From Escherichia coli (GTDB lineage: Bacteria > Pseudomonadota > Gammaproteobacteria > Enterobacterales > Enterobacteriaceae): a stretch of DNA of 64,000 nt. The position numbers and the translations under genes are program-made. The first letter of the stretch is position 1. Every line of letters begins with the position of its first letter. The DNA lies in NCBI RefSeq assembly GCF_044324785.1, contig NZ_CP172127.1, one strand, 5' to 3'. Shown here piece by piece: positions 12,642 to 51,806 of the stretch. The notes beneath the pieces are model-generated. The model saw nothing but the letters and a program-made list of their open reading frames with translations, was not told the origin of the DNA and did not search any database.

Positions 12642-12718
12642 GGCTACGTAGCTCAGTTGGTTAGAGCACATCACTCATAATGATGGGGTCACAGGTTCGA
12701 ATCCCGTCGTAGCCACCA
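12642..12718 (+). tRNA. metT: tRNA-Met (elongator, anticodon CAT)
   Basis: 77 nt GGCTACGTAGCTCAGTTGGTTAGAGCACATCACTCATAATGATGG...CGTAGCCACCA; cloverleaf with CAT anticodon and encoded CCA. Confidence 0.95.
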
Positions 12719-12726
12719 TCTTTTTT

Positions 12727-12811
12727 GCGGGAGTGGCGAAATTGGTAGACGCACCAGATTTAGGTTCTGGCGCCGCAAGGTGTGCGAGTTCAAGTCTCGC
12801 CTCCCGCACCA
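12727..12811 (+). tRNA. leuW: tRNA-Leu (anticodon TAG), long variable arm
   Basis: 85 nt GCGGGAGTGGCGAAATTGGTAGACGCACCAGATTTAGGTTCTGG...CTCCCGCACCA. Confidence 0.95.
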
Positions 12812-12834
12812 TTCACCAGAAAGCGTTGTACGGA

Positions 12835-12909
12835 TGGGGTATCGCCAAGCGGTAAGGCACCGGTTTTTGATACCGGCATTCCCTGGTTCGAATCCAGGTA
12901 CCCCAGCCA
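12835..12909 (+). tRNA. glnU: tRNA-Gln (anticodon TTG)
   Basis: 75 nt TGGGGTATCGCCAAGCGGTAAGGCACCGGTTTTTGATACCGG...CCCCAGCCA; paralog name (glnU vs glnW) ambiguous. Confidence 0.95.
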
Positions 12910-12924
12910 TCGAAGAAACAATCT

Positions 12925-13001
12925 GGCTACGTAGCTCAGTTGGTTAGAGCACATCACTCATAATGATGGGGTCACAGGTTCGAATCCCGTCGTAGCCACC
13001 A
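12925..13001 (+). tRNA. metU: tRNA-Met (elongator, anticodon CAT), identical second copy
   Basis: 77 nt identical to the copy at 12642-12718. Confidence 0.95.
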
Positions 13002-13049
13002 AATTCTGAATGTGTCGAATAAGTTCGGCAAATTCACAAACCAATTTGT

Positions 13050-13124
13050 TGGGGTATCGCCAAGCGGTAAGGCACCGGATTCTGATTCCGGCATTCCGAG
13101 GTTCGAATCCTCGTACCCCAGCCA
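13050..13124 (+). tRNA. glnV: tRNA-Gln (anticodon CTG)
   Basis: 75 nt TGGGGTATCGCCAAGCGGTAAGGCACCGGATTCTGATTCCGG...CCCCAGCCA; paralog name (glnV vs glnX) ambiguous. Confidence 0.95.
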
Positions 13125-20607: not shown

Positions 20608-21516
20608 ATGCAATTACGTAAACCTGCCACAGCAATCCTGGCCCTGGCGCTTTCCGCAGGACTGGCACAGGCAGATGACGCCGCCCCGGCAGCGGGCAGT
20701 ACTCTGGACAAAATCGCCAAAAACGGTGTGATTGTCGTCGGTCACCGTGAATCTTCAGTGCCTTTCTCTTATTACGACAATCAGCAAAAAGTGGTGGGTT
20801 ACTCGCAGGATTACTCCAACGCCATTGTTGAAGCAGTGAAAAAGAAACTCAACAAACCGGACTTGCAGGTAAAACTGATTCCGATTACCTCACAAAACCG
20901 TATTCCGCTGCTGCAAAACGGCACTTTTGATTTTGAATGTGGCTCTACCACCAACAACGTCGAACGCCAAAAACAGGCGGCTTTCTCTGACACTATTTTC
21001 GTGGTCGGTACGCGCCTGCTGACCAAAAAGGGCGGCGATATCAAAGATTTTGCCGACCTGAAAGGCAAAGCCGTAGTCGTCACTTCCGGCACTACCTCTG
21101 AAGTTTTGCTCAACAAATTGAATGAAGAGCAAAAAATGAATATGCGCATCATCAGCGCCAAAGATCACGGTGACTCTTTCCGCACCCTGGAAAGCGGTCG
21201 TGCTGTTGCCTTTATGATGGATGACGCTCTGCTGGCCGGTGAACGTGCGAAAGCGAAGAAACCAGACAACTGGGATATCGTCGGCAAGCCGCAGTCTCAG
21301 GAAGCCTACGGTTGCATGTTGCGTAAAGATGATCCGCAGTTCAAAAAGCTGATGGATGACACCATCGCGCAGGTGCAGACCTCCGGTGAAGCGGAAAAAT
21401 GGTTTGATAAGTGGTTTAAAAATCCCATTCCGCCGAAAAACCTGAACATGAATTTCGAGCTGTCAGACGAAATGAAAGCACTGTTCAAAGAACCGAATGA
21501 TAAGGCACTGAACTAA
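20608..21516 (+). CDS. gltI: Glutamate/aspartate periplasmic binding protein
   Basis: 302 aa from MQLRKPATAILALALSAGLAQA (signal peptide); track ORF extends 25 codons upstream. Confidence 0.93.
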   Translation: MQLRKPATAILALALSAGLAQADDAAPAAGSTLDKIAKNGVIVVGHRESSVPFSYYDNQQKVVGYSQDYSNAIVEAVKKKLNKPDLQVKLIPITSQNRIPLLQNGTFDFECGSTTNNVERQKQAAFSDTIFVVGTRLLTKKGGDIKDFADLKGKAVVVTSGTTSEVLLNKLNEEQKMNMRIISAKDHGDSFRTLESGRAVAFMMDDALLAGERAKAKKPDNWDIVGKPQSQEAYGCMLRKDDPQFKKLMDDTIAQVQTSGEAEKWFDKWFKNPIPPKNLNMNFELSDEMKALFKEPNDKALN

Positions 21517-21674
21517 TTACAAGAACCAGGGGCGGAAATTCCAGCCCTCTCGATTGTTACGTAGCACGGACAGACTATACGCCTGATGGTCGTTCCCCAT
21601 CGGGCCTGAAAACCGCAATACGCTGGGTAACAATCTTCGAGGGTAGCAGTTAACGCTGCTACCCTCTTTTTTCT
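21512..21674 (+). ncRNA. sroC: SroC sRNA region (processed from the gltI 3' end/gltI-gltJ spacer) including intrinsic terminator
   Basis: Conserved spacer ending in GAGGGTAGCAG-TTAAC-GCTGCTACCCTC+TTTTTT hairpin at 21640-21674; location matches the known SroC locus. Confidence 0.6.
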
Positions 21675-48143: not shown

Positions 48144-49109
48144 ATGAGTAAACCCATTGTGATGGAACGCGGTGTTAAATACCGCGATGCCGATAAGATG
48201 GCCCTTATCCCGGTTAAAAACGTGGCAACAGAGCGCGAAGCCCTGCTGCGCAAGCCGGAATGGATGAAAATCAAGCTTCCAGCGGACTCTACACGTATCC
48301 AGGGCATCAAAGCCGCAATGCGCAAAAATGGCCTGCATTCTGTCTGCGAGGAAGCCTCCTGCCCTAACCTGGCGGAATGCTTCAACCACGGCACAGCAAC
48401 GTTTATGATCCTCGGCGCTATTTGTACCCGCCGTTGTCCGTTCTGTGACGTTGCCCACGGTCGCCCGGTAGCTCCGGATGCCAATGAACCAGTGAAACTG
48501 GCGCAGACCATTGCCGATATGGCGTTGCGTTATGTGGTTATCACCTCCGTTGACCGTGATGACCTGCGCGATGGCGGTGCCCAGCACTTTGCGGATTGCA
48601 TTACTGCCATTCGGGAAAAAAGCCCGCAAATCAAAATTGAAACTCTGGTGCCGGATTTCCGCGGTCGTATGGATCGTGCTCTGGATATTCTGACCGCCAC
48701 ACCACCAGATGTGTTCAACCATAACCTGGAAAACGTACCGCGTATTTACCGTCAGGTACGGCCTGGTGCAGATTACAACTGGTCGCTGAAGCTGCTGGAA
48801 CGCTTTAAAGAAGCGCATCCGGAAATCCCGACCAAGTCTGGTCTGATGGTGGGTCTGGGTGAAACCAATGAAGAAATTATTGAGGTAATGCGCGACCTGC
48901 GCCGTCATGGTGTGACGATGCTAACGCTGGGGCAATATTTGCAGCCAAGCCGCCATCACCTGCCGGTTCAACGTTACGTTAGCCCGGATGAGTTCGACGA
49001 AATGAAAGCCGAAGCGCTGGCGATGGGCTTTACCCATGCTGCATGCGGTCCGTTTGTCCGCTCGTCTTACCACGCCGATTTGCAGGCGAAAGGGATGGAA
49101 GTTAAGTAA
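48144..49109 (+). CDS. lipA: Lipoyl synthase (radical SAM)
   Basis: 321-aa ORF; cysteine motifs [12 protein letters not shown] and CTRRCPFC. Confidence 0.97.
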
Positions 49110-49209: not shown

Positions 49210-49413
49210 TCACTCTTTATGAGAGAGCTTTTCAGCCTGAAGATCAACGTCTGCGCCTTTTTTCGCCGCAGCATCGTCATCATTCATCGCCTTCTTGAAC
49301 CCTTTAATGGCCGCTCCAAGGTCTCCGCCCAGCGTACGTAACTTCTTAGTCCCAAACAGCAGAACGACCAGCGCCGCAACTACCAGCAGTTTGGTAATAC
49401 TAATCTCACCCAT
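49210..49413 (-). CDS. tatE: Twin-arginine translocase subunit TatE
   Basis: 67-aa [36 protein letters not shown]... Confidence 0.95.
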
Positions 49414-49541: not shown

Positions 49542-50336
49542 TCATAATAATTGCGGCGGCGCAAAGCGACGGTTGTTTAAGACGGGCAGTTGCGCGCGCA
49601 CCTGACGCACACGTTCAGGCGTCACTTCCGCCATAATGAGTGCAGGCATTTCTGACGCTGCCGCAATGGTGACGCCAAAGGGATCTATAATTCGGCTTTG
49701 CCCGATATTTTTGTTCCCGCACTCCCCCGCCGCCACCATATAACAGGTGGTATCCAGCGCACGAGCGGCAAGCAACGTTGACCAGTGATGCTCTTTGAGC
49801 GGCCCACGAACCCAGGCGGCAGGAAGTACCAGGATTTCAGCTCCCTGTAATGCCTGTGCCAGCGCCAGCTCTGGAAAGCGTAAGTCATAACAGGTCATCA
49901 GACCGACCTTCATCCCTTCCACCTCCAGTAACGGAGCTATTTCATTACCAGCATCAACATGGCGTGATTCCTGAATGGCAAATGCATCATAGAGATGCAG
50001 TTTGGCATAACGGGCGACGATGTTTCCTGCCTGTAGCGCCACCAGCATATTCCATGCGCGCCCCGGCGTTGAAGGAACATGAATCGTCAGAATTGTCGTC
50101 ATCATGTTACGTTTACTTTCTCGCCGTAAACGTCCGAGGAATTCGCCTTCCAGCAGCTGTGCTGATTTAACCGATAGATCTGCATCATGATCATCACGCG
50201 CCAACAATGCTTCCGGCAGGACAAACAGCGAAACGTCGTTTTCCGCCGCCTGCGCCATCAACGAGGCACAAATCTCAGCGTTCTTTTCCCACACAGATGT
50301 AACAGCAAACTGTCCTGCGGCAACCAGCATTGCCAC
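49542..50336 (-). CDS. ybeM: YbeM, C-N hydrolase (nitrilase superfamily) protein, apparently intact
   Basis: 264-aa uninterrupted ORF with E...K...C triad context ([10 protein letters not shown]); true start may be the third codon. Confidence 0.8.
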
Positions 50337-50425
50337 CTCCTCCTGTCAGAGTCGTAAAATTCGCCAACGGCGATTATTCGGCGTTACACTTATCACTCAT
50401 ACAAATCAAATAGCAGGATTTTGCA

Positions 50426-50809
50426 GTGTTACAACTTCTTTTAGCAGTTTTTATTGGCGGTGGTACGGGAAGCGTGGCGAGATGGCTGTTAAGTATGCGA
50501 TTTAACCCGCTGCATCAAGCGATTCCGCTGGGGACGCTGGCTGCAAACCTGATTGGGGCATTCATCATAGGAATGGGATTCGCCTGGTTTAGCAGGATGA
50601 CGAACATTGATCCAGTGTGGAAAGTATTAATCACCACCGGATTTTGTGGCGGTCTAACAACCTTCTCAACATTTTCGGCAGAAGTGGTGTTTTTGTTACA
50701 AGAGGGCCGCTTTGGCTGGGCGTTACTGAACGTTTTCGTCAACCTTTTGGGGTCTTTTGCCATGACCGCACTGGCTTTCTGGCTGTTTTCCGCCTCAACC
50801 GCACACTAA
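50426..50809 (+). CDS. crcB: Fluoride channel CrcB/FluC
   Basis: 127-aa four-TM ORF with GTG/TTG-type start; conserved [11 protein letters not shown]. Confidence 0.94.
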
Positions 50810-50813
50810 AGAC

Positions 50814-50844
50814 CAAAAAAACCCGCTGATTAAGCGGGTTTTGA
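50814..50844. terminator. Bidirectional terminator between crcB and cspE
   Basis: AAAAAAACCCGCT-GATTA-AGCGGGTTTTG. Confidence 0.8.
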
Positions 50845-50861
50845 ATTCTTGCTGACGTATC

Positions 50862-51071
50862 TTACAGAGCGATTACGTTTGCAGCAGAAGGGCCTTTGGC
50901 ACCGTTAGTGATTTCGAACTCTACGCGCTGACCTTCAGCAAGAGTTTTAAAACCATTAGTCTGGATTGCAGAGAAGTGTACGAACACGTCTTTGCTGCCG
51001 TCTTCCGGAGTAATGAAACCGAATCCTTTGGACTCATTAAACCACTTAACGTTACCTTTAATCTTAGACAT
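50862..51071 (-). CDS. cspE: Cold-shock-like protein CspE
   Basis: 69 aa [20 protein letters not shown]... (RNP1 motif); track ORF extends upstream to an alternative start. Confidence 0.95.
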
Positions 51072-51245
51072 CAAAATTACCTTTACATGAAAAATAGACA
51101 CAAATGCTGTGTCGGTTACCAGTACACCAATTGTGGTACGCTTTGTCCAGTGCAACTTTACTAAAAAGTGATAAAAGTCGCGTTATTTTTGATGTTACTT
51201 ATTTTAGTTATTGATTTTAAAGAAGTTACTAAAACTTCATTTGTC

Positions 51246-51806
51246 TCAAAACTGAAAGCGCATCCAGGCAAAGTACACATTGCCATTGTTGTAGGTACCC
51301 GGAATGTAGGTCATCTGAAAAGTCACTGGACCATAACCCACAGAGGCCAATGGCAGTAGAACCGGGAGAGGGATGTAATTCCAGTTATCGCGTGCCGTTA
51401 CGCCAGCGGTGAATCCCAGACCTAAATGAAAATTTTCATCCGCCAGCGGTCGCCAGGTACTTTCCCATCCGTATCCGGCAATCGGTTCCCATTTGTTCCA
51501 CGAGTCCTTAAATGCCATGGCATACAGGCCATGCCAGTTTCCTTTTTCATCCCAACGCGACAGGCCAAAACCGCCACCCCACGGTCGCTCGTTATAGCGA
51601 TCGGTTTTTTCTTTGTCGTAAGCGAAACGTGCATGCCAGGTGATGGCAGGAATATATAAATCATAATGTTCAGGCTGTTGCCAGGTTTGTGCAATATTTT
51701 CTCTAAACGTTGTCATCCACTCATCTGCGTTAGCAAAAACTTTACCAACGCTGATTAACTGAATAAAAACAAAGGAAAAGATAGCGACATATTTACTCAC
51801 GTTCAT
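51246..51806 (-). CDS. pagP: Lipid A palmitoyltransferase PagP (CrcA)
   Basis: 186 aa from [25 protein letters not shown] (signal peptide); outer-membrane beta-barrel ending ...RFQF. Confidence 0.93.

Follow-up and report, generated by a model that had tools for sequence, protein, structure and literature searches.

An intact ybeM allele of Escherichia coli, its assignment to the Nit1-type deaminated glutathione amidases, and the distribution of the K-12 frameshift

Deaminated glutathione (dGSH) amidase (EC 3.5.1.128) has a described representative in E. coli, namely the YbeM protein of strain O157:H7 (UniProt entry P58054). According to that UniProt record, dGSH amidase activity was reportedly measured for O157:H7 YbeM by Peracchi et al. 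in 2017 (PNAS). On the strength of this record and of an NCBIfam "exception" model, E. coli YbeM itself has presumably been assayed. A passage in PMC8788347, which cites work in the line of Peracchi et al. 2017, equates YbeM with NIT1/dGSH amidase, and the second E. coli protein of this kind, YafV, has been equated with NIT2/omega-amidase (PMC8788347; PMC8711792). Mammalian Nit1 and its yeast orthologue are stated to hydrolyze dGSH in a passage of PMC5714238 that cites Peracchi et al. 2017. Public annotation already covers ybeM, the family it belongs to, its substrate assignment, and the pseudogene status of the K-12 copy. Here, the ybeM locus of a window of 64,000 nucleotides, that is, the whole stretch of E. 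coli DNA that was analyzed, was compared with these systems and with the ybeM alleles of other E. coli genomes.

Reading frame, start, and surroundings of ybeM

The ORF listing and direct reading of the sequence showed a stop-free ORF on the minus strand at 49542..50336, with no frameshift and with 264 amino acids when counted from a GTG codon. The uninterrupted frame was as described in the original prediction, which had taken it for a 264-codon gene, but the GTG start did not hold: the start of ybeM is likely the ATG at 50330, which gives a product of 262 amino acids (CDS at 49542..50330, minus strand, 262 codons plus stop). The ATG was preferred because it lies 5 nt past the run AGGAGGAGG and is the RefSeq start, in a 789-bp CDS, for the identical protein. 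This run, at 50336..50344 on the minus strand and 5 nt upstream of the ATG, is the Shine-Dalgarno sequence of ybeM, and the GTG (50336..50334) shares the last base of the run (50344..50336). The GTG at 50336 was ruled out as the start, since it shares a base with the Shine-Dalgarno run and the RefSeq gene begins at the ATG. The ORF is not a chance ORF, because the CN_hydrolase profile matched it from end to end; a frame of some 262 codons would in itself stay open by chance with a probability of approximately (61/64)^262 = 3e-6 per start.

In the upstream regions of five strains, AGGAGGAGG was common to the window and strain GMF054, and AGGAGG was present in K-12, O157:H7, and ECCHD184. Alignment with K-12 showed that the ribosome-binding site in the window has one AGG unit more, as a 3-bp indel. 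Match lengths of 1301 bp versus 1298 bp across E. coli genomes suggested that the extra AGG unit is confined to a minority lineage.

As had been proposed, ybeM lies between tatE and crcB. The tatE gene (49210..49413, minus strand) is its downstream neighbor on the same strand with a gap of 128 bp, and crcB, encoding a fluoride channel (50426..50809, plus strand), is its divergent upstream neighbor across 95 bp of intergenic sequence; both were assigned from the ORFs and syntenic annotation. The ORF listing further placed lipA at 48144..49109 on the plus strand, and cspE and pagP were also among the neighbors in the window. The gene order crcB-ybeM-tatE-lipA was that of K-12, in opposite orientation, and was likewise found in the GMF054 and O157:H7 regions. 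When positions 40000-64000 of the window were compared with the 5426 complete RefSeq E. coli genomes, the best match was 99.3% (strain N3) with the gene order fully kept, and the lineage of the window is not closely represented among these genomes.

Some other features of the window were recorded. The Rfam search detected no family in or adjoining ybeM; the nearest match was a cspA-type thermoregulator element over cspE and its leader (50814-51256, minus strand, 123.6 bits), and the sRNA sroC was matched at 21512-21674 on the plus strand (174.8 bits), both being expected for their regions. A tRNA cluster of five genes, Met-Leu-Gln(UUG)-Met-Gln(CUG), was located at 12642-13124 on the plus strand. 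The corresponding K-12 cluster, metT-leuW-glnUW-metU-glnVX, has seven tRNA genes; by comparison, the window strain would have single, not duplicated, Gln tRNA genes. Inside ybeM, an out-of-frame ORF of 47 amino acids was found at 49937-50080 on the minus strand. A 29-bp ybeM fragment of strain UTI89, encoding the same peptide as the beginning of this ORF, caused filamentation when expressed from pBAD24, and this effect was considered by its authors to be an overexpression artefact and not an evolved function (PMC6206680).

A simple scan of the crcB-ybeM intergenic region found no sigma-70 consensus promoter, and simple scanning for a ybeM promoter or terminator gave no convincing candidate, the matches being at chance level. 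A pattern search within the coding sequence detected ATGATGCATTT at 49980..49990 on the minus strand (CDS nt 341-351), which has one mismatch to the NsrR half-site AANATGCATTT. In strain CFT073, an NsrR ChIP peak has been located at +345 from the ybeM start, as was seen earlier in K-12 too, and ybeM was transcribed with a 0.30-fold change under a nitrate/NO condition (PMC5320621). The half-site pattern was not enriched in the window, with 7 matches versus 8.3 expected, and ATGATGCATTT is a candidate NsrR site within ybeM solely by its positional coincidence with the ChIP peak.

Family assignment and predicted function of YbeM

The ybeM protein matched the Pfam profile CN_hydrolase (PF00795) with 141.4 bits (E=4.2e-41; cutoff, 23.2) over profile positions 2-255 of 256, so that the domain search put forward in the original prediction returned a full-length match. 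The glutamate, lysine, and MTCYD cysteine contexts pointed out there were also all present. The codon of Glu40, in an LPE motif, is at 50211..50213 and aligned with Glu54 of the NitFhit structure 1EMS; that of Lys110, in an AKLHL motif, is at 50001..50003 and aligned with Lys127 of 1EMS and the equivalent lysine of yeast Nit2 (4H5U); and that of the nucleophile Cys147, in the MTCYD context, is at 49890..49892, with Cys169 in 1EMS and the yeast Nit2 CYD motif as its aligned counterparts, all three codons being on the minus strand. The Glu40/Lys110/Cys147 triad was therefore complete in the window protein by alignment to 1EMS and 4H5U. Both the full-length profile match and the Glu-Lys-Cys triad place the protein in the nitrilase/C-N hydrolase superfamily.

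Within the superfamily, the NCBIfam model NF033621 (de_GSH_amidase) was matched with 451.5 bits (E=7.6e-136; curated cutoff, 355) over model positions 2-260 of 260. Public protein records list the exact 262-residue sequence for at least 1000 contigs, with the name deaminated glutathione amidase. Strain GMF054 has an identical protein, WP_001305561.1, under the same RefSeq name. The original prediction had proposed an amidase/nitrilase-like enzyme of unknown substrate; the superfamily was correct, but the NF033621 score, the RefSeq name, and the assignment in PMC8788347 supply a substrate. We consider it very probable that ybeM in the window is an intact and common allele, orthologous to Nit1 and encoding a dGSH amidase.

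We infer the enzymatic activity and the physiological role of YbeM from this assignment as follows. Transaminases would now and then remove the amino group from the glutamyl moiety of glutathione, and the product, N-(4-oxoglutaryl)-Cys-Gly, is dGSH. In YbeM, Cys147 would attack the carbonyl of the amide between the 2-oxoglutaryl moiety and Cys-Gly, Cys-Gly would leave, and the resulting thioester acyl-enzyme would be hydrolyzed by water to yield 2-oxoglutarate; by analogy with the family, Glu40 would activate Cys147 and Lys110 would stabilize the tetrahedral intermediate. The role of YbeM would accordingly be metabolite repair and not nitrile or amide catabolism, which fits a locus without transport or catabolic partner genes.

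A main role as an omega-amidase of the Nit2/YafV kind, acting on 2-oxoglutaramate and 2-oxosuccinamate from glutamine and asparagine transamination with dGSH as a side substrate, appears improbable. Such a role would be in keeping with the Nit branch that YbeM and the omega-amidases have in common, and Nit2-type structures were indeed still matched by the protein, mouse Nit2 (2W1V) with 82 bits and yeast Nit3 (1F89) with 75 bits. An activity of YbeM on 2-oxoglutaramate that is lower but measurable has reportedly been found, and this would count in its favor. However, the best solved relatives were of the Nit1 type, namely the Nit domain of NitFhit (1EMS, 106 bits) and yeast Nit2 (4H5U, 97 bits), and their higher scores suggest that the protein is nearer to Nit1-type than to Nit2-type relatives, by a moderate margin among solved structures. 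Moreover, the YafV omega-amidase model NF007757 gave 61.5 bits against a cutoff of 249, with residues 88-252 alone matched, whereas NF033621 was passed, and E. coli already has a separate omega-amidase gene, yafV (PMC8711792; PMC8788347).

Even less probable is that YbeM works as a genuine nitrilase or aliphatic amidase, with exogenous nitriles or amides as substrates. Nitrilases and aliphatic amidases do share its C-N hydrolase fold and Glu-Lys-Cys triad, but the scores of the corresponding models, nitrilase NF040852 (61.5 versus 500), aliphatic amidase NF009802 (23.7 versus 427), and formamidase NF009803 (46.8 versus 406), were all far under their cutoffs, and the adjoining genes, tatE, crcB, and lipA, include no catabolic or transport partners. 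The models of N-carbamoylputrescine amidase, NAD synthase, and Lnt were likewise matched far under their cutoffs.

The K-12 frameshift and its distribution in E. coli

The statement of the original prediction that ybeM of K-12 MG1655 is a frameshifted pseudogene agreed with its annotation (b4581) and with pairwise alignment, which placed a 1-bp deletion in codon 67. The deleted base is the G of this codon (CGT, Arg67), at 50131 on the minus strand of the window, and the deletion was the sole indel inside the gene in the alignment with K-12. Translation of the K-12 sequence showed that the shifted frame meets a stop codon when 75 residues have been read, so that Lys110 and Cys147 are not reached.

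Of 5426 complete E. coli genomes, 5424 had the ybeM locus. The deletion allele was detected in 860 of them, about one sixth, by an exact 61-mer across the deletion site of K-12, and the exact 62-mer of the window allele was present in 3622, the remaining genomes differing from both k-mers by SNPs; the k-mer counts are lower bounds for ybeM inactivation, as the codon-67 deletion was the one lesion surveyed. The suggestion that the intact copy is a peculiarity of this strain was therefore not borne out, given a locus in nearly all genomes and the deletion in just 860 of them. Intact ybeM is the common and evidently the ancestral state in E. coli, the disrupted gene of K-12 being exceptional. In O166:H15 strain JNE21-003 (NZ_AP041809.1, 755633-756600), the 1301-bp query matched two places, the best of which spanned query positions 334-1301 alone, so that ybeM of this strain may carry an insertion or rearrangement some 90 bp before its stop codon, near window position 49633.

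An exact 61-mer carrying both K-12 substitutions (V33A and V37A) occurred in 365 genomes, nearly all of them K-12 derivatives in 30 sampled rows. The deletion carriers accordingly comprise about 365 genomes of the K-12 lineage and about 495 outside it, the latter being approximately 10% of the non-K-12 complete genomes. In an evenly spaced sample of ten carriers, eight had been isolated from human, pig, or environmental sources. The ybeM sequences of five natural carriers (from chicken stool, an environmental sample in Switzerland, a pig in Japan, human faeces in Ecuador, and urine in Egypt), all annotated as "frameshifted," were mutually identical, and this shared null haplotype showed two differences, the deletion and one SNP, from the intact allele of pig strain NT1N31. 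The deleted G lies outside any homopolymer. Because of this position and of the haplotype common to the carriers, the simplest reading of the sequences is that the codon-67 deletion had a single origin. Recurrent frameshifting was rejected on the same two grounds, no homopolymer at the deleted G and the identity of the five sampled natural carriers.

The V33A and V37A changes are private to K-12. Both are nonsynonymous T-to-C changes, 12 bp apart (window equivalents 50233 and 50221), and they were absent from the other 11 alleles sampled, including the five natural frameshift carriers and all intact ones; they would fit a relaxed constraint after inactivation. Intact alleles differed from the window by 2-13 nucleotides and 0-2 amino acids, with a His124 variant common to the window, GMF054, and Nissle 1917. 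Because the divergence among intact alleles is mostly synonymous, it indicates purifying selection on intact ybeM, as far as can be read from the alleles compared. Since hundreds of natural isolates have kept the frameshift, YbeM is dispensable in at least some lineages.

We give practically no weight to the view that ybeM is intact but silent or decaying and without function in the window lineage, the frameshift allele being the first sign of a species-wide loss: the deletion in 860 of 5424 genomes, the normal growth of K-12 without ybeM and the use of its locus by K-12 workers as a neutral "pseudo gene" insertion site (PMC7242477), and the lack of a consensus promoter in the simple scan would agree with it, but the mostly synonymous differences among intact alleles, the retention of all catalytic residues, the transcription and condition-responsiveness of ybeM in CFT073 (PMC5320621), and the one haplotype in all sampled frameshift carriers, which points to a single event and not to repeated decay, argue against it.

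We lean, with some reservation, toward regarding the frameshift as a natural single-haplotype null, present in about 495 non-K-12 genomes from humans, pigs, chickens, and the environment, so that dGSH repair would be segregating in the species, possibly in connection with NsrR-linked nitrosative stress. The only small addition made here to what is known is this probable nature of the "K-12" frameshift as a natural null on one haplotype in about a tenth of the complete genomes outside K-12. As K-12 is a natural null for YbeM, its metabolomics and fitness data are not representative of most E. coli in this respect, and the labels "pseudogene" and "unknown function" carried over from K-12 mislead for other strains. 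A null allele segregating on one haplotype would also offer ready-made, isogenic-like contrasts for the fitness value of bacterial dGSH repair.

Comparison with known systems

YbeM of O157:H7 (WP_000959109.1) is encoded at the same crcB-tatE locus and has the same length of 262 amino acids; it was identical to the window protein at 261 of 262 residues, and both proteins passed NF033621. The sole residue difference is Arg124 in O157:H7 versus His124 in the window (H124R), and the ribosome-binding site of the window has one AGG unit more. The annotated pseudogene of K-12 MG1655 (b4581) shares the locus and the gene order, with a DNA identity of about 98% over the gene and flanks of about 100 bp. 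It lacks the G of codon 67 and carries V33A and V37A, whereas the window has neither change.

The eukaryotic Nit1 family, comprising mammalian Nit1, yeast Nit2 (4H5U/4HGD), and C. elegans NitFhit (1EMS), has the C-N hydrolase fold and the Glu-Lys-Cys triad in common with YbeM. The alignments were nearly full-length (E=1e-27 to 1e-29), although the sequence relationship is distant, and YbeM is shorter, being without the Fhit fusion, the mitochondrial targeting sequence, and the insertions of yeast Nit2. The omega-amidases E. coli YafV and mammalian Nit2 share the superfamily branch and the catalytic chemistry with YbeM, and both kinds of enzyme are regarded as metabolite-repair amidases. However, omega-amidases prefer 2-oxoglutaramate and not dGSH, and YbeM fails the YafV model.
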